Counted from the first letter of the stretch, positions 3,862 through 47,268 are shown. The stretch: 64,000 nucleotides of DNA from Alphaproteobacteria bacterium 43-37 (GCA_001897475.1 MKSY01000026.1:25324-89323); one strand, 5' to 3'. A program made the numbers and translations. The notes: generated by a model not told the origin, from the letters alone.

Positions 3862-4587
3862 ATGCATAAAAATTTACTAAAGTTTTTTAATGTTAACGTT
3901 CGAAATTCTCATGCTTGTAAAGTATTTAAGCGGGTTATTGCTGTTTTTCTGATGATAGGGTGTACGATCAGGGGAGATGCTTATGCAACTTCATTGGCGC
4001 CAGATGTCAAAGAGTTCTGTGATCATTTTTATGCGACACATAATGTAACGGCAGAGCAATCTGTTGATCGTGAGTTTTTGGCCAACAAAATCCGACAAGG
4101 AAAAATAGCCCATGCAAGAGTTGAGGTTGCATTAGATCTTGTAGGCGGTATGCAAAGGCCTCTTCGAGAAATGCAAAGGTTGTATCAAACGGCCCTAACA
4201 GGAAAAGGCTTTGATCCTGTTCAGCTGGATATTGAATATCAAACACTGGCAAAGCATTTTACTCTAGCATACTCAGCAATGTGGAAATACCTTAGACACA
4301 TGATTGATGGTGAGTCTCAATTTGAGATTTTGTCACAAATGATCGGGCAGTTGCCCCCAGAGTTTTCGATAGGGACGCTTAGCTGCCCGTTAAAAATTCA
4401 GGAGATAGATATGAGGCTTGTGGGCAGTAGTGAACAAGGCGGGCTTCTCACCTTAGTGGATCATTTGATAATTGGTTTGCAGTCAGCTAGGCATTCTTTG
4501 GAATATAATCAAGGCTTTTTCGAGCTGGCTCAAACCGAGCCATGTTTGGCCCGTATTATGGTGAGAGGGTTAAAGATTGGCTTATAG
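3862..4587 (+). CDS. Hypothetical protein with N-terminal membrane anchor or signal peptide
   Basis: It has a hydrophobic segment at aa 24-36, no recognisable catalytic motifs, and sits next to the secreted protein and the patatin gene. Confidence 0.45.
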   Translation: MHKNLLKFFNVNVRNSHACKVFKRVIAVFLMIGCTIRGDAYATSLAPDVKEFCDHFYATHNVTAEQSVDREFLANKIRQGKIAHARVEVALDLVGGMQRPLREMQRLYQTALTGKGFDPVQLDIEYQTLAKHFTLAYSAMWKYLRHMIDGESQFEILSQMIGQLPPEFSIGTLSCPLKIQEIDMRLVGSSEQGGLLTLVDHLIIGLQSARHSLEYNQGFFELAQTEPCLARIMVRGLKIGL

Positions 4588-4730
4588 GCAGTGGAGGCTG
4601 ATTGGAAAGTCCTAGGCTCTGCAAGCCAACTGTCAGATCAAGTCTGAATTAGTACATGTTATGCAAACAAAACTCCTCCTGAAATTTTCATTCAGGAGGA
4701 GTAAGTGCTCATTATAACTTTATAATTAAA

Positions 4731-5792
4731 TTAGAAGTCCATTGTGGATTTTACACCCAGGCTGTCAAAATTCTCTCTCATCCACTCGGATGCGCACTCT
4801 TTACCTGCCTCATAAAGGTGGTTGATAAATTCGCTTGTAGAATTGAGCTTACTTGAGAAGCCGAGTTTGGTGAAAACACTTTCGTTTTTAATGCAATGCA
4901 TATGAACGCGCTTATGCTTCTTGTCGCTTAGCTCACCCTTGTTAATGAGATCAGTAATGAAATGAATGTTGCGCATTTCTCTCATTAAAGACATGTTGTT
5001 GCTGATCTCATTCAAGCGATCGGAGATGCCACGTACATCGTGTGGAATTTCTGCCCTGCGGGTTGGGTTGAGCTGCACAATGATGATATCCTGAGCGTCA
5101 CAATTGTAGATGAGGGGATAGATAGCTGGGTTTCCAACAAACCCACCGTCCCAGTAGAATTCGCCGTCTACTTCAACTGCCTTGTGGATCAAAGGTAGGC
5201 ATCCAGATGCTAGAAGCACTTCTGGCTTTAATTCAGGGTTAGTGAAGATGCGGATGTTGCCGTCACAAACATGTGTGGCGCAGAGGAAGACTTTGTGCAG
5301 GGTTTCTCGGCGAAGGATATCAAAGTCAAATGTTTTTAGAATCACATCACGCAAAGGATCTGTATCCATTGGGTTGAACTGATAAGGTGAGAGCATGCGA
5401 ATCATTGTGTCAAAGGCCATGTATGCTGGGGTGTTATACATAGTGTACAAGCCCATCATTTTATCGATTGGGCCGGGTTTAAGTTGCCCTTTGTCTCCAG
5501 CTTCAGCGATGCCTTCCCAGAATGCTCTTAAAACTTTACGTGCGCCCTTGTTGCCATTGATGATCAGGCCCTGGCATGTCGCTACAGAGTTCATTGCTCC
5601 TGCGCTTGTGCCGCTTAATCCTTCAACTTCAATGCGATCATCTTCCAGTAATCGATCGAGGACACCCCAGGTGAAAGCACCGTGAGCCCCGCCACCTTGA
5701 AGTGCAAGATTTACACGCTTTTTGCCACTTGCGGGTGCTTTGCTAGCTGGATTTGTCATAATTTGTCTCTCCTGTTTAATTTTTTGGTGCAA
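4731..5792 (-). CDS. Patatin-like phospholipase
   Basis: It has a glycine-rich oxyanion motif (LALQGGGAHGAF), a GTSAG serine-lipase motif, a downstream DGG Asp dyad motif and a basic N-terminal leader. Confidence 0.8.
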   Translation of the reverse strand: MHQKIKQERQIMTNPASKAPASGKKRVNLALQGGGAHGAFTWGVLDRLLEDDRIEVEGLSGTSAGAMNSVATCQGLIINGNKGARKVLRAFWEGIAEAGDKGQLKPGPIDKMMGLYTMYNTPAYMAFDTMIRMLSPYQFNPMDTDPLRDVILKTFDFDILRRETLHKVFLCATHVCDGNIRIFTNPELKPEVLLASGCLPLIHKAVEVDGEFYWDGGFVGNPAIYPLIYNCDAQDIIIVQLNPTRRAEIPHDVRGISDRLNEISNNMSLMREMRNIHFITDLINKGELSDKKHKRVHMHCIKNESVFTKLGFSSKLNSTSEFINHLYEAGKECASEWMRENFDSLGVKSTMDF

Positions 5793-6314
5793 TATCCGAT
5801 ATAATTTATTCTAAAAACAAAAGGATAAGAATGTTTTAATTTAGTAATGGGTATGCCCAAACTACTATTCGTACGCGCTCCCTAATGGGTGTGATGCATA
5901 CATTGATTAAGAATGTGCAGCAAAAATGTTAATAAATCCTTACCGGGCATTTTCAATGCGTTATAATTTTTAATCTTTTCGGTAGGAAACGCTTTTTCTT
6001 GTAAAGCTGAAACAATCTGCCTTTATCGATTTTTAGGTAAAAAATACGGATGTTGGAGGGAGGATATTTTGATAATAATAGGAGCAATTAAGGCGATAAA
6101 TTCGAATAAGGTTAATGTTACGCTGTTATTGAATGCCATTCTAGCTAAATAAGATTCCAGCTATGTAAGTGTATTGCAATGTGTCATTGCGCCGGTAACG
6201 GTGGGTTAGAATAAAAAAAGTTGAGCGCAAAACAGGTGCTAGTAAGGCTTTGACGTTAAAAATTGCTACTCGTGCCGCGTAGTTGAGTTTAGCGATAAAC
6301 ACAGGAGAACCACC

Positions 6315-7115
6315 TTGAATCTTAAATGTATGGATTACAACTACTCTGCTTACAAGTATCAAGAGTCAATTTATGATGCTTATTGTGAAATTATTGAGCC
6401 ATTGCTGAAGTATTTTAGATGCAAAATATTTTATTACATGAAGTTTTTTCCTGATGGAACATATTTGTCTTTAAGTAACAACCTCAGTTGGCAAAAATTC
6501 TATTTTTCAAATATTCTTAATAATGACATGATTCAGGGGTTTAGAGCTCTTGCTTGCTATAACCTTACAGATTATGTTCCGGTTCTGTGGCCTAAAACGC
6601 CTAACTCAAAGATTACTCAAAGTTTATACGATCAAGATATTTGGAACGGCTATAAGCTTATGAAGGTTTCAAGTAATTGTGTTGAGTCTTGGGGTGTGTG
6701 TACAGATAGGCTCTCGTCAGAAAGCCAAGAATTTTATATCCGTCAAAAAGAAACATTTTTATCGTTCATTCGCCATTTTGAAGAAAAAGCAAAAGATCTC
6801 ATAAGGTTGGGGCCGTTAGAAGATTATAAGCTTGGTTATTATGAAAATGGTACGGAAACGTTTCCTATTGTTGCAAATTTGTATTCTCAAAGTTTGCTGA
6901 AAGAAGAAGAGGCGCGGATGAGAACATTTTTATGTGAGTTATACAAAGAGGATCGGTTTATTAATGTTTTGACGCCTTTGGAAACAAAATGTCTGGCGCG
7001 CTATCAAGGAGGTGAGAGGGCGAGTGATCTTTCAAAGAAATTTAACCTGCCGTTTCAGACTGTGGAAATGTTGCTTAGGAATGCGGGCAAGAAAATTAGG
7101 GGCATTGCCACTTAA
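6315..7115 (+). CDS. LuxR-family transcriptional regulator (C-terminal GerE-type HTH, solo)
   Basis: The C-terminus has LTPLETKCLARYQGGERASDLSKKFNLPFQTVEMLLRNA, a LuxR/GerE helix-turn-helix. The N-terminal domain of about 190 aa is not a canonical autoinducer-binding fold. The gene is very AT-rich. Confidence 0.6.
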   Translation: MNLKCMDYNYSAYKYQESIYDAYCEIIEPLLKYFRCKIFYYMKFFPDGTYLSLSNNLSWQKFYFSNILNNDMIQGFRALACYNLTDYVPVLWPKTPNSKITQSLYDQDIWNGYKLMKVSSNCVESWGVCTDRLSSESQEFYIRQKETFLSFIRHFEEKAKDLIRLGPLEDYKLGYYENGTETFPIVANLYSQSLLKEEEARMRTFLCELYKEDRFINVLTPLETKCLARYQGGERASDLSKKFNLPFQTVEMLLRNAGKKIRGIAT

Positions 7116-7195
7116 GCTCTTATGGGCGCTGCTATTGGGTGCGAGGTAAATGCTTTTTGGAATTCTCTTAAAGCTGAGTAAGTTTTAACGGCCTC

Positions 7196-7309
7196 TTACT
7201 CCCTCACGCCCATCCAGTTGCCAAGATGGCTGTGGGCTCTGGTGTTCTTCGCCCTGAAGCGTGCGTGGAATTGAGGAAGAAGGGCAATGCTCGGGTTCAA
7301 GCAAAATAA
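7196..7309 (+). pseudogene. Relic of a T7 gp10-like major capsid gene with an internal deletion of about 280 codons
   Basis: Positions 7196-7212 match the 5' end of the intact capsid gene (ttactccctcacgccc at 12683). Positions 7221-7309 match its 3' end (13541-13629), encoding ...KMAVGSGVLRPEACVELRKK...QAK*. Confidence 0.65.
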
Positions 7310-7442
7310 CCTTCTCAAATAAGAAGCCAATTATTTAGTTTTTAAAGATATAATTTAGTAACAGTCGCCAGGGGATTGCTGAAGATTTGTTTACATCATC
7401 GTTTCAGGTTTGGTATAAAATAAGACTAACAAGAGGAAAAAG

Positions 7443-7931
7443 ATGAGTAAGATTTCATTTACATGCGATCTCCATAAAACGGTTGAAGTCCTTCTTTGGG
7501 TCATGGGTCAATCAAAGGAGGGTGTCAATCTGTATAACCTTGTTAAAACGATCTTTCATGCTGATTGTTACCACTTGAACAACTATGGAAGGCCAGTCAC
7601 AGGGGATCATTACATTGCGATGGATCATGGAACTGTCCCCAGCTGGGTTTATGACTTGCTCAAGCATGATCCTTTTACGTTATGTGATGCTGGGTATGAA
7701 CTAGGCGGCCAAACCCTTCCCTTTGAAGCTAAAGGGAATATGCTGGTTGCCAAGCGCCCCTTTAACCCAGACTTTTTATCTGAAAGTGACATTGAGGCCC
7801 TTCAGCAAGGTTTTAAAGAGTATGGAACTTTGTCGTTTCATGAGGTCAGAAATAAGAACCACTCACACCCAGCTTGGAAGAAATACTATTTTGAACAGCC
7901 CATCAAGAAATTCTTTTTGAAGCACTTATAA
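7443..7931 (+). CDS. Panacea-domain (SocA/GepA-like, DUF4065) protein, a putative antitoxin
   Basis: The motif block LYNLVKTIFHADCYHLNNYGRPVTGDHYIAMDHGTVPSWVYDLLKH matches the Panacea-domain consensus (KLQKLLY...GPV..VY). Confidence 0.6.
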   Translation: MSKISFTCDLHKTVEVLLWVMGQSKEGVNLYNLVKTIFHADCYHLNNYGRPVTGDHYIAMDHGTVPSWVYDLLKHDPFTLCDAGYELGGQTLPFEAKGNMLVAKRPFNPDFLSESDIEALQQGFKEYGTLSFHEVRNKNHSHPAWKKYYFEQPIKKFFLKHL

Positions 7932-8006
7932 ACGATTCTGAGATATTGGAAGATCTCCAATCCATTTCCTCTCAGTCTATTAAAGTCTAGACAAGGCAAG
8001 GACAAG

Positions 8007-8383
8007 TTGGTAAAGCTGAAAGTTGGAGATGTTATTCATATTTATCAAGAGCAAATCTATTCGCCTAAAAATAAGTATCATGTATGTGTCTGCCTGGATG
8101 CAGAAGAGTATTGGTTTTTTCTGATAAACTCCCAAGCCAGAAAAATGTACGAGTGCACATGGGCGATATTGCCGCAGAAATATCCGTTTCTGAAACACGA
8201 AAGCTACATTTCTTGCTCACGAGTATTAAGCGAGTCCAAGGATATTGTTATTCAAAAAGTTCTTGGCGTTTGGATTCAGAGGACTTGAAAGAGGTTTTAA
8301 GTAAAACCCAAGCTTCTCGAACGTTAACAAAACGTCGGAAAGATCGTATTCTCCCCCAGCTTCTTCAAGCTTTATCGGCATAA
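8007..8383 (+). pseudogene. Small ORF pair (8007-8288 and 8084-8383) downstream of the Panacea gene, possibly a frameshifted toxin-like gene
   Basis: Two overlapping frames are present 75 bp downstream of the Panacea gene on the same strand. The first ORF has a GDV...K.K.HV.VCL pattern that faintly resembles PemK/MazF. No other support. Confidence 0.25.
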
Positions 8384-8471
8384 GAAGCCTCTATAAACGT
8401 TTTTCTCTAACATCAAACTTTTAAAAAAATCAAGACATCTAACTAAAGATAGATATTGGTTGTAAGGTTTG

Positions 8472-8619
8472 CTACCGCTGAATATCAACAATCAATTTAT
8501 TCCCAACCTAATTTGTTACCTAGGAGAAGAACTTGAAGGTGTCTAATTTCAAAGACCCTAGGGAAGTTATGGTGGGCGATGAGGGGATTGAACCCCCGAC
8601 CCTCTCGGTGTAAACGAGA
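8472..8619. repeat. attL: direct repeat of the attR region, including a 50-bp exact copy of the tRNA-Val 3' end (8570-8619)
   Basis: Positions 8570-8619 are identical to 47194-47243. About 95 bp of imperfect homology extend leftward (ctgaatatcaacaatcaatttattcc...ttgttacctaggagaa). Confidence 0.75.
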
Positions 8620-8734
8620 TTCCAGTATTGTCATGGAATTATCAAAAGCTATAATTTTTGTTTTATTTTTAGTGGCTTACGCAAAATCTAAAATCATCTG
8701 GTGTCACTAAAAATTTGCTATTTTATCCATTTTT

Positions 8735-8756
8735 TGTTACCTATATGTTACCTAGA
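8735..8756 (+). promoter_or_regulatory. Tandem TTGTTACCTA repeats upstream of int (candidate integrase arm-type sites)
   Basis: ttgttacctatatgttacctag recurs exactly at 47127-47148 beside attR, and as a single copy at 8514-8524. Confidence 0.4.
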
Positions 8757-8773
8757 TCAAAAATGATGGATAG

Positions 8774-9967
8774 ATGCCAAAACTAACAAGAAAGATTATT
8801 GACGAATTAAAACCTGATCTTTCAAAAGAAAGATGCCTTTGGGATACTGAGATTAAAGGGTTTGGTATAAGGATACAAAAGAGCGATAAGAAAACGTTTA
8901 TTTATGTCTACAGAAACTCAAGCGGCAAGCTGAGAAAATTCAAGCTTGGTAATTATGGTAGCCTTACTGTTGAGCAGGCAAGAGAGCGCGCTTTAAAAAC
9001 TTCTGCTAAGGTTATCCTTGGTGAAGACCCTGTTAAAGAAAAGGAAGAGATAGTACTCGCTCGAAAAAATGCAGTTTACACTGTTTCTGACCTCATAAAT
9101 GACTACATGTTAAATTATGCTCCAGCAAACATAAAAAAAATTACCATAGGAAAATGGAAAAGCTTTATAAGGCTTTATATCTTGCCCGAATGGGGGGCTA
9201 GACCAGTCAATGAAATTAAAAAATCTGATGCTGAAAAGCTAAAGGCTAGCCTTAAGGATAAAAAGACTACTGCTAACCAGGTATTATGTATACTCTCAAG
9301 TATGTTTAATCATGCCATTGAATGGGGTAAAATCACTGAAAATCCCATTACTAAAGTTAAAAAGTATAAGGAACATAAAAGGCTTCGTTGGGCTGATGGT
9401 GAAGAGTTTGAACGATTATGGTCAACCCTTCAAAGTTACAAGGGCTATGCGCCTGCTGATGTTCTTATCTTTATTCTTTTAACTGGCTCACGTAAAAGTG
9501 AGGTTTTTAAGGCTAGTTGGGATCAATTTGATCTTGAAAAAGGTATTTGGGTTAAGCCCCACATTAATACAAAGCAGCAACGAAACGAGTATATTCCTCT
9601 TTCTCATGAGGCTATAGAGTTTCTTCAGGAATTAAGAGGGTATTCCTCTGACTATTACCTTTTTCCTGGTCGGGTTCCGGGTTCACATATTACAGATGTC
9701 AAAAAGTTCTGGGCTAAGGTTCTTAAAGAAGCCAACATTGACAACCTGCGCATCCATGATCTGCGGCATACGTACGCATCCCACCTGGTCTCCAGTGGTT
9801 TGAGTCTTAGTATTGTGGGTAGGCTTTTAGGACACTCAAACCCAAATACCACCCAGCGCTATGCCCATTTGGCTGATCAGGCTCTGCGTGATGCCACAAA
9901 CCTGTTTGCGGGTAAGCTGAAGAAAATTACGCAGAAAGATTCATCCTCAAAAGAACCTTCATTATAA
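8774..9967 (+). CDS. int: Tyrosine integrase (P4-type, with N-terminal arm-binding DUF4102-like domain)
   Basis: The catalytic block is RIHDLRHTYASHLVSSGLSL...LLGHSNPNTTQRYAHL (R, HxxR, Y). The N-terminus has WDTEIKGFGIRI. The gene is adjacent to attL. Confidence 0.9.
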   Translation: MPKLTRKIIDELKPDLSKERCLWDTEIKGFGIRIQKSDKKTFIYVYRNSSGKLRKFKLGNYGSLTVEQARERALKTSAKVILGEDPVKEKEEIVLARKNAVYTVSDLINDYMLNYAPANIKKITIGKWKSFIRLYILPEWGARPVNEIKKSDAEKLKASLKDKKTTANQVLCILSSMFNHAIEWGKITENPITKVKKYKEHKRLRWADGEEFERLWSTLQSYKGYAPADVLIFILLTGSRKSEVFKASWDQFDLEKGIWVKPHINTKQQRNEYIPLSHEAIEFLQELRGYSSDYYLFPGRVPGSHITDVKKFWAKVLKEANIDNLRIHDLRHTYASHLVSSGLSLSIVGRLLGHSNPNTTQRYAHLADQALRDATNLFAGKLKKITQKDSSSKEPSL

Positions 9968-12675: not shown

Positions 12676-13629
12676 ATGACGTTTACTCCCTCACGCCCAG
12701 GTATCAACAGTCTCAATCCGCAGACTGGTGATCGCGAACTGTTTTTAAAAGTCTACAGCGGTGAAGTGTTAGCCGCCTTTGAAGAAAGCACGGTGGCCAT
12801 GAGCCGCCATATGGTGCGCACCATCCAAAATGGTAAAAGCGCTGCCTTCCCTGCCCTCTGGAAAGCGGATGCGTATTACCATAAACCAGGTGAAGTCATT
12901 GCGCCTCAAGCCTTTAACCATGGTGAACGAGTGATCACTATTGATGATCTATTGGTCTCAGCATCCTTCTTACCCAGCATTGATGAAGCCATGTCCAGTT
13001 ATGATGTCAGAGCCGCTTATTCCAAAGAAGCAGGCTTTGCTTTAGCCAGACGCTTTGACCAGAACGTCCTCAAGACCGGCATTCTGGGTGCACGCTCTGG
13101 CCCAGCTGTGAGTGGCGGCCCCTATGGCAGTATTCTTGAACGAGACAAGATTGACTCTGACAGCATGGTTCTAGCCGAAAGCATCTTTGAAGCCGCCCAG
13201 TTGCTCGATGAGAAAGATGTTCCGTCACAAGATCGCTTCATCTTCCTAAGCCCCAAGCATTATTACATGCTTGCCAGAAACACCACGGTGCTTAATAAAG
13301 ACTGGGGCGGCAGTGGCGCTTACAGTGATGGTAAAGTCCTCAAGATTGCCGGCATCACCATTGTGGAGACCAACAACCTACCCAACACCAACATTAATGA
13401 TGGCTTGGATAAATACCGTGGCGACTTCTCTAGCACGGTAGCTCTTGTGATGCATAAAACAGGTGTTGGCACCGTCAAGCTCATGGAGATGGCGACCGAG
13501 TCTGAATATGACATCACCCGTCAAGGATTCTGGACGGTGGCCAAGATGGCTGTGGGCTCTGGGGTTCTTCGCCCTGAAGCGTGTGTTGAATTGAGGAAGA
13601 AAGTTGGCAGCCCAGTTCAAGCAAAATAA
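12676..13629 (+). CDS. Major capsid protein, T7 gp10-like
   Basis: LFLKVYSGEVLAAFEESTVAMSRHMVRTIQNGKSAAFP and the C-terminal VGTVKLMEMA...GVLRPEA align with T7 gp10A (LFLKVFGGEVLTAF...SRHMVRS...GKSAQFP; VGTVKLRDLA...GGLRPEA). Confidence 0.9.
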   Translation: MTFTPSRPGINSLNPQTGDRELFLKVYSGEVLAAFEESTVAMSRHMVRTIQNGKSAAFPALWKADAYYHKPGEVIAPQAFNHGERVITIDDLLVSASFLPSIDEAMSSYDVRAAYSKEAGFALARRFDQNVLKTGILGARSGPAVSGGPYGSILERDKIDSDSMVLAESIFEAAQLLDEKDVPSQDRFIFLSPKHYYMLARNTTVLNKDWGGSGAYSDGKVLKIAGITIVETNNLPNTNINDGLDKYRGDFSSTVALVMHKTGVGTVKLMEMATESEYDITRQGFWTVAKMAVGSGVLRPEACVELRKKVGSPVQAK

Positions 13630-35953: not shown

Positions 35954-38440
35954 ATGGACTCTACTTTTACTGAAGGCAGTGTTGAGACCAATCTCAATGC
36001 CAGCCTTGAATCAAACGTTAATAGCAACGTCAATCCCCACTTTGAAGAAACATTTGTTCAACAGGGCAAAGAGCGCTTTGCCGTATCCCACCAAAAAGCC
36101 ATAAGAAAAGGTTCTTACTCGGTTACGCAGGTTGGGCGCATCCTCCTTCCGCCCGCCATTGAACCACTTAAAGAAGCTGTGATCGATTTTGTCACCACAG
36201 CGATGACTGGCCAGGCCACCACCATGGCAACAGCAGCCCTTTATCTTAAAAACCTAGCTCCTGAAGTTGTGTCATTGATCGCTTGTCGTTGCATCATCGA
36301 TAAGCTCACGCAGCCCATCTCTTTCACACGTCTTGCCAGCATCATTGGCAAAGCGATTCAGGATGAATTGATCATGGAAGCTTTCAGCGAACAAAATAGA
36401 AGGCTATACGATACTATCGCTTTAGAGAACTTGAAGAAGATTTCCAACACCTTTGTGCGCCGCTCTATGATGCGCAAGCAAGCCGCTCACTATGAAATTG
36501 TCTCACCAGAGATGGATCAATCCACCTGCATTCTTGTGGGAGCCAAGCTTATTGAACTGTTTTGTGAGGTCACTGGGTTTATCGAAATCTTCATTCAGAT
36601 TCGAAGTGGCCGGGAATACCGCATGGTGCATCCCACGGCTAAGGTCTTAGAGTCCATTGATCAGCTTTACGATCAGTTATCTGGAAGGTTCCCAGCTTTT
36701 GGCCCTATCATCAAAAAGCCCAAAGATTGGAAAAGCTTTCATGAAGGAGGATTCCATACGTTACGCCAAAAGTTTGTGCGCACCTTTTCCAAAGAGCATG
36801 CGAAGATGCTTAAACATCATGCCATGCCAAAGGTGTATGAAGCCGTCAACCATTTGCAGGCAACACCCTATGCCATTAACAAGCAAGTCTTGGAAGTGGC
36901 TCAATACATTTGGGATCGAAGAGAAAACTTTGGCGAATTGCCCTTTGCGGGGCTGCCTGAAAGGTATGTTTATGAGATACACGGCCAACCAACTGGATTT
37001 GATGAGGGTTCTCTTGCTAAGCATAAATACAATGAAAGCATAAAAAGTCAGAACCTTGAGGTCAAATTTATTCTTAAAACAGCCCATAGCTACAAGGATG
37101 AAAGGCAATTATACTTTGTCCATAACACAGACTTTCGAGGAAGGGTTTATCCTGTTACTAGTTACCTGTCCCCACAAGGCAATGATTTGAATCGCGGCAT
37201 ACTCACTTTTTCTGAATCTCAAGCAAAACCTTTGGGTAAATCAGGGCTAATCTGGCTCAAGATTCATGCAGCCAACTGTTGGGGCAAAGATAAAGACTCA
37301 TTGGATGAACGCATCAATTGGAGCAGTGATAACCTTGAGCGCATTATTCGAGTAGCTGAAGACCCGTATGCTGATTACTGGTGGGAAGAAGCGGACAAAC
37401 CGTTTCAGTTCTTGGCTGTTTGTTATGAGTTTTTAAAGCTGATGGTGGAATGGGATGATTACAAATGCGCCCTTCCCATCACAGTGGATGGATCAAACAA
37501 CGCCCTGCAACACTTCAGTGCTCTTCTCTTAGACGAGAGGCTCGGAAGGGCAACCAACATGCTCCCTCCTGAGTCAGATGGTGAAAAGCCAAAGGACTTT
37601 TACCAAGAAGTTTGTGATGCAGCCACTCACCTGATCACCATAGATGCCGCTCATGGGAAGCCAGAAGCTAAAGCTTGGGTAAAAGCCATTAACCGCAAGA
37701 TAGTGAAGTCTCCAGTTATGACCTACTATTACGGCGTCACATTCAAAGGAATGGAAGATCAGATTGATGAGGTTTTGGGAAATCAAATCGATGAAAGCTT
37801 GAAAGATCAAGCGTTAACAGTTCATGGGGATCGTAAAAAGAGTATTCAGTACCTTGTCTGGTTGTTAAAACGAATCATTCCTCAAAAGGCACCATCCGTG
37901 GAAAGCTGTATGCAGCTTTTGAAGTGCGCCACACGGCATCTTGCTAAGCAAAATAAATCCACTACATGGCTAACACCTTCTGGGTTTAAGGTTGTCCAAG
38001 ATAATCGAATAAAAACAAAGATGCAGATAAAAACTAAATTGTTTGGAACTCAGAACTTCTGGATGAGGTTCGATGCTGAGCCCAATAACGAAGATAAGGC
38101 TGATATTAAACGACAAGCCAATGGTATTACAGCCAACTTTATTCACTCTTTGGATGCTGCTGCCTTAACCCTGTGCATCTTGGAAGCTAAAAAACACAAC
38201 ATCACAGCCATTCGAACCATTCATGATAGCTTGTCTGTGGTTCCAGGTGATATGGAAGTTTTAAGCCAGCTGATTCGAAAAAGTTTTCAGCAGATGTATC
38301 AGGATAAAAACTTGCTCAAGGATTTTCTAACCCAAACATTGGACAAGGAAACAGCTGAAACCTTTTGGAAAGAAGCCAATATTAGCCTTGGGCTTCTTGA
38401 TCTCAGTCAACTGAAAAAAGCCACATACTTTTTTGCTTAA
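35954..38440 (+). CDS. Single-subunit DNA-directed RNA polymerase, T7 gene 1-like
   Basis: VDGSNNALQHFSALLLDE (T7 DGSCSGIQHFSAMLRDE), NFIHSLDAAAL (T7 NFVHSQDGSHL), IHDSLSVVP (T7 IHDSFGTIP) and the C-terminus ...YFFA (T7 ...FAFA). Confidence 0.92.
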   Translation: MDSTFTEGSVETNLNASLESNVNSNVNPHFEETFVQQGKERFAVSHQKAIRKGSYSVTQVGRILLPPAIEPLKEAVIDFVTTAMTGQATTMATAALYLKNLAPEVVSLIACRCIIDKLTQPISFTRLASIIGKAIQDELIMEAFSEQNRRLYDTIALENLKKISNTFVRRSMMRKQAAHYEIVSPEMDQSTCILVGAKLIELFCEVTGFIEIFIQIRSGREYRMVHPTAKVLESIDQLYDQLSGRFPAFGPIIKKPKDWKSFHEGGFHTLRQKFVRTFSKEHAKMLKHHAMPKVYEAVNHLQATPYAINKQVLEVAQYIWDRRENFGELPFAGLPERYVYEIHGQPTGFDEGSLAKHKYNESIKSQNLEVKFILKTAHSYKDERQLYFVHNTDFRGRVYPVTSYLSPQGNDLNRGILTFSESQAKPLGKSGLIWLKIHAANCWGKDKDSLDERINWSSDNLERIIRVAEDPYADYWWEEADKPFQFLAVCYEFLKLMVEWDDYKCALPITVDGSNNALQHFSALLLDERLGRATNMLPPESDGEKPKDFYQEVCDAATHLITIDAAHGKPEAKAWVKAINRKIVKSPVMTYYYGVTFKGMEDQIDEVLGNQIDESLKDQALTVHGDRKKSIQYLVWLLKRIIPQKAPSVESCMQLLKCATRHLAKQNKSTTWLTPSGFKVVQDNRIKTKMQIKTKLFGTQNFWMRFDAEPNNEDKADIKRQANGITANFIHSLDAAALTLCILEAKKHNITAIRTIHDSLSVVPGDMEVLSQLIRKSFQQMYQDKNLLKDFLTQTLDKETAETFWKEANISLGLLDLSQLKKATYFFA

Positions 38441-39681: not shown

Positions 39682-40060
39682 ACATCAACAGTACCGTTCA
39701 GCCTTTGAGAAAGGGATTGCCAAAAGCTTATCCGCCAAAAACATTCCTTTCACCTATGAGACCAAATCCCTTGTCTACCACAGCACTCAAACTTACACAC
39801 CCGACTTTGTGTTTCCATCAGGCTTGATGTTGGAAGCCAAAGGGTTTTTTAAACCACAGGATCGTCGCAAGCATTTGCTTGTTAAGCAACAACATCCTGA
39901 TGTGGATATCCGGTTTGTGTTTCAAAATGCCAATGTGCCTTTGTCTAAGGGTTCAAAAACCACTTATGCCAAATGGTGTGAAAGGCATGGGTTTTTGTAT
40001 GCTGAAAAGGATGTTCCAGACAGCTGGATCACTCAGAGCATCGTTGAGGAGGTGCAATGA
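39635..40060 (+). CDS. Endonuclease I (Holliday-junction resolvase), T7 gp3-like
   Basis: YTPDFVFPSGLMLEAKGFFKPQDRRKHLLVKQQHPDVDIRFVF matches T7 gp3 YTPDFLLPNGIFVETKGLWESDDRKKHLLIREQHPELDIRIVF. The start is uncertain (39596, 39635 or 39656) and overlaps the end of the SSB gene. Confidence 0.8.
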   Translation: MSIQAKRQMRKKSPSKHQQYRSAFEKGIAKSLSAKNIPFTYETKSLVYHSTQTYTPDFVFPSGLMLEAKGFFKPQDRRKHLLVKQQHPDVDIRFVFQNANVPLSKGSKTTYAKWCERHGFLYAEKDVPDSWITQSIVEEVQ

Positions 40061-41640
40061 CTTCAAATTCAAACTTTGTTGGTCATGAGCCTTGTCCAAA
40101 GTGTGGTAGCAAGGATAATCTTGGTCGATATGATGACGGTCATGGCTATTGTTATGGCTGCCAATACAGTCAGCAGCCTGATTCAGTTGAGGAAGTTGAA
40201 GAAGTTGAGGGTGTAGAAAGAGGCAATAGCTTCTCTTTTATTCAAGGCACCATCAAAGCTTTGCCCAAGCGTGGTTTGACTCAGGCAACCTGCAAGCTCT
40301 GGCGCTATGAGGTGGGTCAATACAAAGGTAGGGTTTGCCATATTGCCAATTATTTTGATGAGGCTGGGAGAAAGGTTGGCCAAAAACTTCGATTTGAAGA
40401 TAAAACTTTTAAGGTCATTGGCAAGCTGAATCTTTATGGTAAACATCTTTGGTCGGCTGGAAAAATGGTGGTGGTGACTGAAGGTGAGATTGACGCCCTG
40501 TCTATGTCTCAAGCTTTTGATAACAAATGGCCTGTGGTGTCGATCCCAAATGGGGTGCAAAGTGCTTATAAAGCCTTACAAGAAACCCAAGACTGGTTCA
40601 ATGGCTTTGACCGAGTTGTGTTACTGTTTGATCAAGATGAAGCCGGCATTAAGGCCGCCAAGTCCTGTGCTCAGCTGTTTAAGGTGGGTCACGTCTTTAT
40701 TGGCAAACTCCCATTAAAGGATGCCAATGAGATGATCGTGGCAGGCCGAAGCTCAGAACTCATCAATGCCATATGGCGAGCGTCTGAATACCGGCCCGAT
40801 GGCATTGTGGATGGCAAGGACACCTGGAAATATCTTCTCGAGTCCCAGGGCAAGCCAGCAGCACTTTATCCATTTGAAGGATTAAACCAAAAGACCGGAG
40901 GCATTCGCCTTGGGGAAATTGTGACCATTTGTGCTGGCACAGGAATTGGAAAGTCCCAAGCTTGCCGTGAGATTGCTTTGTCTTTGGTAAATCAAAACTT
41001 TAAGGTTGGCTACATTGCCTTGGAAGAAAACTTGGGCAAAACAGTTGCTTCATTCATTCACCTTAAGCTTAATCAACCACCTCATGCTTCACTTCAAACA
41101 GATGACACCACAAAAACTGTATGGGAAGAAGTTATCCCAAAGATGGCGTTTTATGATCACTTTGGCTCAATGGACAGCACAACCTTACTCAACCGGATTC
41201 GGTTTATGGCTGTGAGCCTGAACTGCAAACACATTATCCTCGACCACTTGTCCATTGTGATCTCTGGCTTGGCTGGGGGCGATGAGCGGCGGATGATTGA
41301 TCAGACCATGACCAATCTACGTTCTCTAGTGGAAGAGTTACAAATCAGTCTCATCCTTGTTTCTCACTTGCGTCGCATTGATGGCAAGCCTCATGAAGAA
41401 GGTGGCGCCACATCTTTGTCTCACCTTCGTGGCAGTGGCGGTGTGGCTCAGCTGTCTGACATGGTCATTGGCCTAGAGCGGGATCAACAGTCTGAATCCT
41501 CTAATCTCATGACTCTGAGAGTCCTTAAGAATCGCTTCAAAGGTGAGACGGGGTTTGCCGCTACACTGGAATATAACCCCACCACCGGAAGGCTGAGCGA
41601 GGTAAGCGCTAAGAGCGGTGAAGCTACGACAGCCTTTTAA
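40057..41640 (+). CDS. DNA primase/helicase, T7 gp4-like
   Basis: It has a zinc ribbon (CPKCGSKDNLGRYDDGHGYCYGCQ), a TOPRIM region and a helicase Walker A (CAGTGIGKS). Confidence 0.9.
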   Translation: MTSNSNFVGHEPCPKCGSKDNLGRYDDGHGYCYGCQYSQQPDSVEEVEEVEGVERGNSFSFIQGTIKALPKRGLTQATCKLWRYEVGQYKGRVCHIANYFDEAGRKVGQKLRFEDKTFKVIGKLNLYGKHLWSAGKMVVVTEGEIDALSMSQAFDNKWPVVSIPNGVQSAYKALQETQDWFNGFDRVVLLFDQDEAGIKAAKSCAQLFKVGHVFIGKLPLKDANEMIVAGRSSELINAIWRASEYRPDGIVDGKDTWKYLLESQGKPAALYPFEGLNQKTGGIRLGEIVTICAGTGIGKSQACREIALSLVNQNFKVGYIALEENLGKTVASFIHLKLNQPPHASLQTDDTTKTVWEEVIPKMAFYDHFGSMDSTTLLNRIRFMAVSLNCKHIILDHLSIVISGLAGGDERRMIDQTMTNLRSLVEELQISLILVSHLRRIDGKPHEEGGATSLSHLRGSGGVAQLSDMVIGLERDQQSESSNLMTLRVLKNRFKGETGFAATLEYNPTTGRLSEVSAKSGEATTAF

Positions 41641-46932: not shown

Positions 46933-47119
46933 AAAGCAGGTTTCAGAATTATACAATGTAAGCGTTGGAACTCTGCGCTCTCAAAGAGTAACCGGCAAAG
47001 GAATGCCCTTTGTTAAGTTTGGAGGTAAAATCCTTTATAGGACTGAAGATATTGAAAAATATATTCAGGGTAGACTTTTTAACTCTACCACTGAATATCG
47101 ACAATCAATTTATTCCTAA
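46910..47119 (+). CDS. Excisionase-family HTH protein (candidate recombination directionality factor)
   Basis: KQVSELYNVSVGTLRSQRVTGKGMPFVKFGGKILYRTEDIEKYI. Its 3' end lies inside the att-flanking repeat, and a relic copy of this 3' end is at 8478-8505. Confidence 0.5.
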   Translation: MTKILLTEKQVSELYNVSVGTLRSQRVTGKGMPFVKFGGKILYRTEDIEKYIQGRLFNSTTEYRQSIYS

Positions 47120-47243
47120 TCTAACTTGTTACCTATATGTTACCTAGGAGAAAAATCCAGAAGTTGCTAACTTCAAAAACCCTAGGGAAACTATGGTGGG
47201 CGATGAGGGGATTGAACCCCCGACCCTCTCGGTGTAAACGAGA
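47086..47243. repeat. attR: direct repeat partner of 8472-8619, overlapping the 3' 50 nt of tRNA-Val
   Basis: Positions 47194-47243 are identical to 8570-8619. The upstream imperfect homology contains the TTGTTACCTA tandem at 47127-47148. Confidence 0.75.
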
Positions 47244-47268
47244 CGCTCTCCCGCTGAGCTAATCGCCC
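47194..47268 (-). tRNA. tRNA-Val (anticodon TAC)
   Basis: The reverse complement reads GGGCGATTAGCTCAGCGGGAGAGCGTCTCGTTTACACCGAGAGGGTCGGGGGTTCAATCCCCTCATCGCCCACCA. It has a 7-bp acceptor stem, a TTTACAC anticodon loop, a TTCAATC T-loop and CCA. Confidence 0.85.

Follow-up and report, generated by a model that had tools for sequence, protein, structure and literature searches.

A probable remnant of a type II Panacea antitoxin operon with a toxin of predicted MazF fold in an alphaproteobacterial genome

We describe a short locus in which a type II toxin-antitoxin operon of the PanA-PanT kind very probably survives as a remnant: a gene for a Panacea-domain antitoxin (panA) preceded one for a toxin of predicted MazF fold (panT), each of the two now apparently being short of a single nucleotide and the pair being the probable cargo of an old prophage. 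The locus lies in a 64,000-nucleotide stretch of the genome of Alphaproteobacteria bacterium 43-37 (GCA_001897475.1, MKSY01000026.1:25324-89323), hereafter the window, and all coordinates are counted from its first letter (Table 1). In its intact form, the operon would have encoded a 182-aa antitoxin, made up of the Panacea core and an acidic C-terminal tail, followed after 16 nt by a basic, 125-aa toxin of the MazF fold. What is known of MazEF and of the validated PanA:MazF-like pairs suggests by analogy that PanT would act as a sequence-specific endoribonuclease that arrests translation and that PanA would neutralise it through direct binding, whereby the acidic tail of PanA may occupy the RNA groove of PanT in the way the MazE tail does. 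The frameshift in panA would deprive the antitoxin of its C-terminal strand and helices, and that in panT would cost the toxin its last strand together with both C-terminal helices.

Table 1. Features of the panA-panT locus and of the neighbouring prophage, in window coordinates
Feature	Position	Strand	Remarks
3' relic of a T7-like (Gp10A-like) major capsid gene	7217..7306	+	directly upstream of the module
Possible module promoter	7391..7420	+	TTTACA, 18 nt, TATAAA; read by eye
Putative ribosome-binding site for panA	7432-7437	+	AGAGGA
panA ORF	7443-7931	+	162 aa; Panacea core intact at residues 33-146; last 9 residues out-of-frame junk
Inferred 1-nt deletion in panA	7902..7903	+	ancestral ccc-aat-caa to ccc-atc-aa; profile frame switch 7898-7919
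Displaced ancestral PanA C-terminal tail	7904..7990	+	-1 frame; QEILFEALINDSEILEDLQSISSQSIKV; stop 7988-7990
panT, 5' part	8007-8288	+	93 aa; TTG start; AAGGA at 7998-8002; frame valid to Gly87 (8265-8267)
Second-frame ORF	8084-8383	+	99 aa; -1 frame relative to ORF 8007-8288
Inferred 1-nt deletion in panT	8267..8268	+	ancestral ggN-cgt to ggcgt; profile frame switch 8258-8268
panT, 3' part (meaningful portion of ORF 8084-8383)	8267..8383	+	-1 frame; RLDSEDLKEVL...QALSA, then stop
att-arm-like stretch	8472..8567	.	abuts the att core; resembles the phage-side arm of the prophage, 47085-47191
Left att core of the resident prophage	8568..8619	-	duplicates the 3' 50 nt of tRNA-Val
Prophage tyrosine integrase	8774-9967		
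Prophage Gp10A-like capsid protein	12676-13629		
Prophage single-subunit RNA polymerase	35954-38440		
Prophage T7-type helicase-primase	40057-41640		

That the first ORF of the locus encodes a Panacea protein, as a preliminary description of this DNA had proposed, is on profile evidence far beyond chance: its product matches the Pfam family PF13274 (SocA_Panacea, DUF4065) with an E value of 5.3e-16 and a score of 60 bits, the cut-off being 25.7, residues 33-146 covering profile positions 1-113 of 113. The ORF also matches PHROG 1281 (E 8.7e-16), and its 162-aa product is 100% identical to a 'SocA family protein' of an Alphaproteobacteria metagenome-assembled genome (MAG). Full-length homologues, with which this product aligns, are 170-192 aa long and carry a conserved C-terminal motif, P-N-x-x-I-x-F-E-x-L-I-x-D-x-x-x-L-x-x-L-K-E-x-S-x-x-x-x-I; the panA product departs from them after ...YFEQP and reaches a stop 9 residues on. 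Searched over the window, a PanA profile aligns in frame 0 for its positions 1-155 (7443-7919) and in frame 2 for positions 149-174 (7898-7975, E 1.4e-4). Putting back one A (ccc-aat-caa) regains the P-N-x-x-I-x-F-E-x-L-I motif with its spacing and yields the 182-aa protein. From these alignments, panA appears to be frameshifted at about 7902, its acidic and conserved C-terminal tail (about 28 aa) having been displaced to the -1 frame. This lesion was not part of the preliminary description and is new here.

In the restored frame, the tail of the window copy has a net charge of -6; those of the homologues range from -1 to -9, save for one truncated entry, and are mostly at -4 or below. An AlphaFold model of one PanA homologue (P0003; pLDDT 94.3) renders the tail segment structured, as a strand (152-154) followed by two helices (156-159 and 163-175), and a Foldseek search with the model of a PanA homologue returned no solved structure at E < 0.09. 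Since the displaced tail extends to 7990, the gap of 75 nt to the next ORF on the same strand, which along with the ORF coordinates had been described correctly, is mostly former panA coding sequence. From the ancestral panA stop to the TTG of the toxin gene, the true spacer measures 16 nt, and AAGGA lies four nt before the TTG. The possible promoter upstream of panA was not listed by a consensus promoter scan because its second hexamer ends in A.

What, then, did the second gene encode? Neither of the two small ORFs downstream of panA has a Pfam match when searched separately. Joined after Gly87 (...IQKVLG to RLDSEDLKEVL...), the two frames give the 125-aa PanT, a basic protein with a pI of 9.2. 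A profile built from 100 family members aligns to the window in frame 0 for positions 2-83 (8013-8264, E 2.9e-33) and in frame 2 for positions 82-120 (8258-8374, E 3.6e-8); by this profile evidence, the two ORFs are the halves of one gene. The split by a frameshift that the preliminary description had suspected is thus borne out by profile matches in both frames, and only its site shifts, from near 8280 to about 8267, where we place it because of the conserved Gly of a G-x-L motif. Homologues of PanT run uninterrupted through this region (K-[IV]-[LV]-G-x-[LM]-x-x-E-D-[LM]).

An exhaustive HMMER search with the joined PanT returned 151 cluster representatives at E <= 1e-3, 29 of them at E <= 1e-10; in almost every case the length is 115-130 aa and the alignment runs from about position 4 to about position 120 straight over the join, and the homologues start as PanT does (for example, MLHLKVGDV). 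Word-indexed protein searches recovered little of this family: with the joined PanT, the sole match was the fragment encoded by the second frame of the window itself, annotated as 'hypothetical protein' in an Alphaproteobacteria MAG, and with the family profile, only 11 proteins. One family member had been named a MazF-type toxin by JGI.

Beyond the window, the pairing of the two genes is conserved. A Panacea gene lies directly upstream, on the same strand, of the PanT-family member in all 13 other loci examined, at spacings of -4 to +7 nt, and in each of the 13 both proteins are uninterrupted. Five PanA homologues (42-56% identical) could be traced to their contigs, where each is followed by a PanT-like ORF of 118-124 aa (BLASTP E 3e-23 to 3e-15), and the reverse look-up from the closest toxin homologue (P0020, 45% identity) led to a 180-aa Panacea gene that overlaps it by 4 nt. 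Scanning genome contigs with a degenerate DNA pattern for FFLIN[ST]ENR gave 58 loci. Four of these hold confident PanT-family members, and the genomes in which the pair was found that way are a Bacteroidota MAG, an uncultured bacterium, a Bacteriovoracaceae MAG and a Rickettsiales MAG; a fifth locus has a marginal, partial match of 66 aa and the rest are chance matches.

The pair further occurs on a plasmid of Candidatus Megaera, where the upstream gene is annotated as 'putative SocA family antitoxin', on one of Bacteroides finegoldii ('Panacea domain-containing protein'), in Serratia phage OS31 (genes p23 and p24) and on a Sinorhizobium megaplasmid. Metagenomic contigs are also among the 13 loci. 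Several of the 13 are in phage settings, beside a terminase gene, ERF/Bro-N genes or antiterminator Q. Scans of viral contigs yielded nothing productive. At one locus (L007, 2456-3051, minus strand), a canonical MazE/PemK pair (PF04014 and PF02452) adjoins the PanA/MazF-like pair next to a phage terminase gene, so that two MazF-fold toxins with different types of antitoxin stand side by side. In Sinorhizobium sp. K101, a six-frame search located the Panacea gene and the PanT-family member on the 3.5-Mb replicon pK101a (L074, 488-1860; NZ_CP104131.1, about 2644653-2644958), for which the PLSDB gene table does not list the pair; the Panacea ORF there may have a long N-terminal extension, measuring 335 aa from the first possible start codon.

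The joined PanT has no match in Pfam (none at E <= 10), NCBIfam or PADLOC even at permissive thresholds, and for this reason its assignment to the MazF toxins rests on the predicted fold and on profile comparison. An AlphaFold2 model computed from the 100-sequence alignment (mean pLDDT 95.9, pTM 0.89) comprises five strands and then two C-terminal helices at 91-103 and 109-124. When this model was compared with the PDB by Foldseek, the top 50 matches were all of the MazF/EndoA/PemK/MoxT type (TM 0.57-0.71, best E 7e-5), among them S. aureus MazF, B. subtilis EndoA/YdcE, B. anthracis MoxT and M. tuberculosis MazF-mt1, -mt3, -mt6 and -mt9. In hhalign, the PanT family aligned to a five-sequence MazF/Kid/PemK alignment, whose B. 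subtilis sequence was verified against PDB entry 4ME7, over 102 columns with 90.9% probability (E 1e-6); against a single MazF sequence, the match was weak (15% probability), and searching PDB sequences with the family profile found nothing below E 0.25. Across 64 family members, PF02452 (PemK_toxin) was the only Pfam family to recur, weakly, in 10 (best E 2.7e-4), with its gathering score being reached neither by these nor by the joined PanT, and PHROGs gave nothing significant for the latter beyond a hint of phrog_1936, 'MazF-like growth inhibitor' (E 0.089). The faint PemK/MazF-like pattern read earlier from the first frame is hence upheld by Foldseek, hhalign and PF02452 alike, and PanT is predicted to have a fold of the MazF/PemK/EndoA type, an SH3-like barrel with a C-terminal helix.

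As to the active site, the GDV motif is in register between the PanT family and MazF/Kid/PemK in the hhalign comparison, and the nearly invariant Lys23 of the family is aligned to Arg25 of B. subtilis MazF. The catalytic residues of MazF we take to be this arginine (R25 in B. subtilis, R29 in E. coli) and a threonine or serine (T48 and T52, respectively). The Arg/Thr pair is not conserved as such in the PanT family, which has Lys at the Arg position, and the column of Thr48 falls in a gapped, low-confidence stretch of the alignment; Asn41, conserved in at least 90% of members within the F-F-L-I-N-S strand, would be our guess for its equivalent. By analogy, we infer that members of the PanT family would be endoribonucleases that use Lys23.

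MazF and CcdB have a common fold, and PanT could accordingly belong to a MazF/CcdB-type family that is not an RNase, acting as a CcdB-like gyrase poison or on another target. The presumed replacement of the catalytic pair (Lys/Asn for Arg/Thr) and the missing Pfam gathering-score match would fit such a toxin, as would the appearance of CcdB, at 98%, in the HHpred list published for the related toxin cluster T5 (PMC8832971). CcdB is, however, absent from the top 50 structural matches, all of them MazF-type RNases, the Pfam match that recurs is PF02452, and two validated PanA-linked MazF-like toxins specifically inhibit translation (PMC8832971). We therefore consider a non-RNase toxin quite unlikely and retain the MazF-type endoribonuclease as the predicted activity.

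Are the two lesions real, and do they matter? Six assemblies with six sample accessions (from ENA, NCBI, JGI (two) and Logan (two)) agree in every one of the 958 nt from 7443 to 8400; as they may represent a single population or a few close relatives, 'fixed' is meant here for that lineage alone. Neither site, 7902 or 8267, is a long homopolymer or has a canonical -1 slippery heptamer (X-XXY-YYZ) in the zero frame. Given the identity in six assemblies and the want of homopolymers and slippery sites, both lesions read as genuine single-base deletions fixed in the lineage. Neither gene of the module is thus intact in the window, panA being broken at about 7902 and panT at about 8267. Judged by its sequence, the module is most likely a fixed pseudogene pair that no longer functions, the truncated PanA and PanT products presumably having lost their activity; the Panacea core of PanA is intact and some function could remain. 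Of the two possibilities raised in the preliminary description, a novel toxin or its inactivated relic, it is the relic that the data favour.

It is very unlikely that the module is still active, be it through -1 ribosomal frameshifting, through transcriptional slippage, or because the truncated Panacea core and the 93-aa toxin fragment still work. Programmed frameshifting would be attractive in that the same -1 correction is needed at both lesions, yet we rejected it for both genes on account of the absent slippery sites, and the best join points fall in aat and ggN-cgt codons rather than in a homopolymer run. As for the truncated proteins, the intact Panacea core (residues 33-146), the ability of a standalone Panacea domain to neutralise some toxins directly (PMC10440598) and the retention of all of the conserved PanT residues G7, K23, I40, N41 and F61 speak for residual function; against it, the truncated toxin is without two helices that belong to the confidently modelled fold, and all 13 homologous loci encode both proteins without interruption. 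More improbable still is that the frameshifts stem from faulty sequencing or assembly, the organism itself having both genes whole. Assemblies often contain single-base indels, and the source genomes are MAGs, but the region is the same in six assemblies from four archives, no long homopolymer occurs at 7902 or 8267, and each of the two adjacent genes would have had to suffer an error of its own that was reproduced everywhere.

If the pair is indeed a fixed relic, its surroundings bear on how it came to the site. On a prophage-free contig of the same species (L001), window positions 4443-8619 are joined straight to position 47244 onward, and 8620-47191 is therefore an inserted element: a T7-like temperate prophage of 38.6 kb at about these coordinates, integrated in tRNA-Val, for which the contig represents the empty site. 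Its 52-nt att cores are identical (8568-8619 and 47192-47243) and lie, on the right, inside tRNA-Val (47194-47268); besides the genes in Table 1, it encodes a family A DNA polymerase, a 5'-3' exonuclease, a head-tail connector and a nozzle protein. From the same junction it follows that the toxin-antitoxin relic is not part of the resident phage.

Probable traces of another phage flank the module on either side. Upstream, the translated capsid relic matches the C-terminal 30 residues of the prophage capsid protein with 87% identity in tblastn, and the DNA is 87% identical over 97 nt. Downstream, the arm-like stretch plus att core resembles 47085-47243 with 84% identity over 160 nt (E 4e-44). 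The prophage-free contig contains the capsid relic as well as the arm-like stretch (8472-8567), the latter with 100% identity; from its similarity, this stretch probably derives from the right arm of a related but older prophage. With the capsid fragment on one side of the module and, on the other, the arm-like stretch bordering the tRNA-Val att core, these two short similarities suggest that an older T7-like prophage at tRNA-Val, since decayed, carried panA and panT close to its att-proximal end. The repeat at 8472-8619 had also been considered as a sign of two tandem prophages; we dropped this reading, for comparison with the empty site points to the left-hand DNA as an older relic.

Further observations concern the same neighbourhood. 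TGTTACCTA motifs at 8514-8522, 8734-8742, 8746-8754, 47126-47134 and 47138-47146, and thus on both sides of the prophage ends as well as in the older arm relic, are candidates for the sites at which the integrase binds the arms. An ORF on the plus strand (6315-7115), shortly before the capsid relic, encodes 266 aa that match neither Pfam nor NCBIfam, with a C-terminus that by eye resembles a LuxR/GerE-type helix-turn-helix. About 1.6 kb upstream of the module, a gene for a patatin-like phospholipase occupies 4731-5792 on the minus strand (PF01734 in the annotation of the same gene in L001-L004).

How does the locus relate to known systems? Two PanA:MazF-like pairs, from P. moraviensis and B. 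ruminantium, have been shown to consist of a toxin that inhibits protein synthesis and is neutralised by its PanA, with complex formation demonstrated for the former (Kurata et al. 2022, PNAS, PMC8832971), and the neutralising element of a PanA can be a C-terminal extension (Ernits et al. 2023, PMC10440598). The combination of PanA and a MazF-like toxin is therefore already published and validated, which leaves the suggestion of a novel toxin without good support; what the window holds is a new, degenerate member. Among the clusters of Kurata et al. with MazF-like toxins are T5, T6 (with the validated P. moraviensis PanAT) and T25 (with the validated B. ruminantium PanAT); T5 and T6 are large clusters of 'hypothetical proteins' that have no CDD match and reach 99.5% to EndoA/MazF in HHpred (PMC8832971).

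Our pairs share with these the gene order, in which a Panacea antitoxin precedes a small toxin with an overlap or a gap of a few nt, the broad phyletic spread that includes Bacteroidetes and Proteobacteria, and the association with phages and plasmids; like the T5/T6 toxins, which are seen as EndoA/PemK/MazF-like by HHpred only, PanT has no conserved-domain match. In contrast to the published pairs, which are intact, the window copy is doubly frameshifted. Compared by description rather than by sequence, the PanT family is likely to be T5/T6; accessions of these clusters (e.g., WP_083201923.1, WP_116809181.1 and WP_076782181.1) did not overlap with the PanT-family matches, and a search for the PanT motif in the supplementary files, which are without sequences, gave no link to T5/T6. 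It is unlikely, in our estimate, that the PanT family instead forms a distinct MazF-fold clade outside Pfam and T5/T6 with a Lys/Asn active site, that it is tied to a single PanA subfamily whose conserved acidic tail, and not the Panacea core, neutralises as a MazE mimic, and that the window copy records toxin- or antitoxin-first decay in a dead T7-like prophage.

With MazEF, PemIK (Kid-Kis) and EndoA-EndoAI, the locus shares the predicted toxin fold, the profile-profile match being nearly full length. Common to PanT and the MazF toxins are an N-terminal GDV, a [DS]-S-[VY]-I strand that leads into a G-x-L turn, and a C-terminal helix, and as in MazEF an acidic antitoxin tail is set opposite a basic toxin. 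The antitoxin, however, is a Panacea protein and not a MazE of the AbrB or RHH type, and PanT differs from PF02452 toxins in falling below the Pfam threshold, in having Lys aligned with the catalytic Arg and Asn41 as no more than a tentative counterpart of the catalytic Thr. SocAB of Caulobacter crescentus, a type VI system, has the antitoxin domain PF13274 in common with the module and differs in its toxin, SocB being unrelated to PanT, with binding and not proteolytic adaptation as the mechanism to be expected for PanA. That the Panacea protein would serve as a ClpXP adaptor for degrading the toxin, as suggested by its NCBI name 'SocA family protein' and by SocA being the founding Panacea protein, is barely credible given a score of 13.6 bits against a cut-off of 190 for the NCBIfam SocA_antitoxin equivalog NF047745, a partner with a MazF fold rather than SocB, and the stable, type II-like complexes formed by five PanAT pairs, including the MazF-like pair of P. 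moraviensis (PMC8832971).

The new biology in this locus is small, in that pairs of PanA and a MazF-like RNase were validated before and the window copy is most likely dead. Caution is in order with its public entries, a 'SocA family protein' of 162 aa and a 'hypothetical protein' of 90 aa, both of which are most likely pseudogene fragments. The family it led to comprises about 150 clusters, is linked to Panacea genes in every locus examined and goes unannotated by Pfam, NCBIfam and PADLOC, so that genome annotation would miss its members, and the PanA subfamily with its conserved acidic C-terminal extension offers a testable candidate for the neutralising element. The locus itself would neatly illustrate how the two partners of a toxin-antitoxin system decay via single-base deletions after the death of the prophage that carried them.
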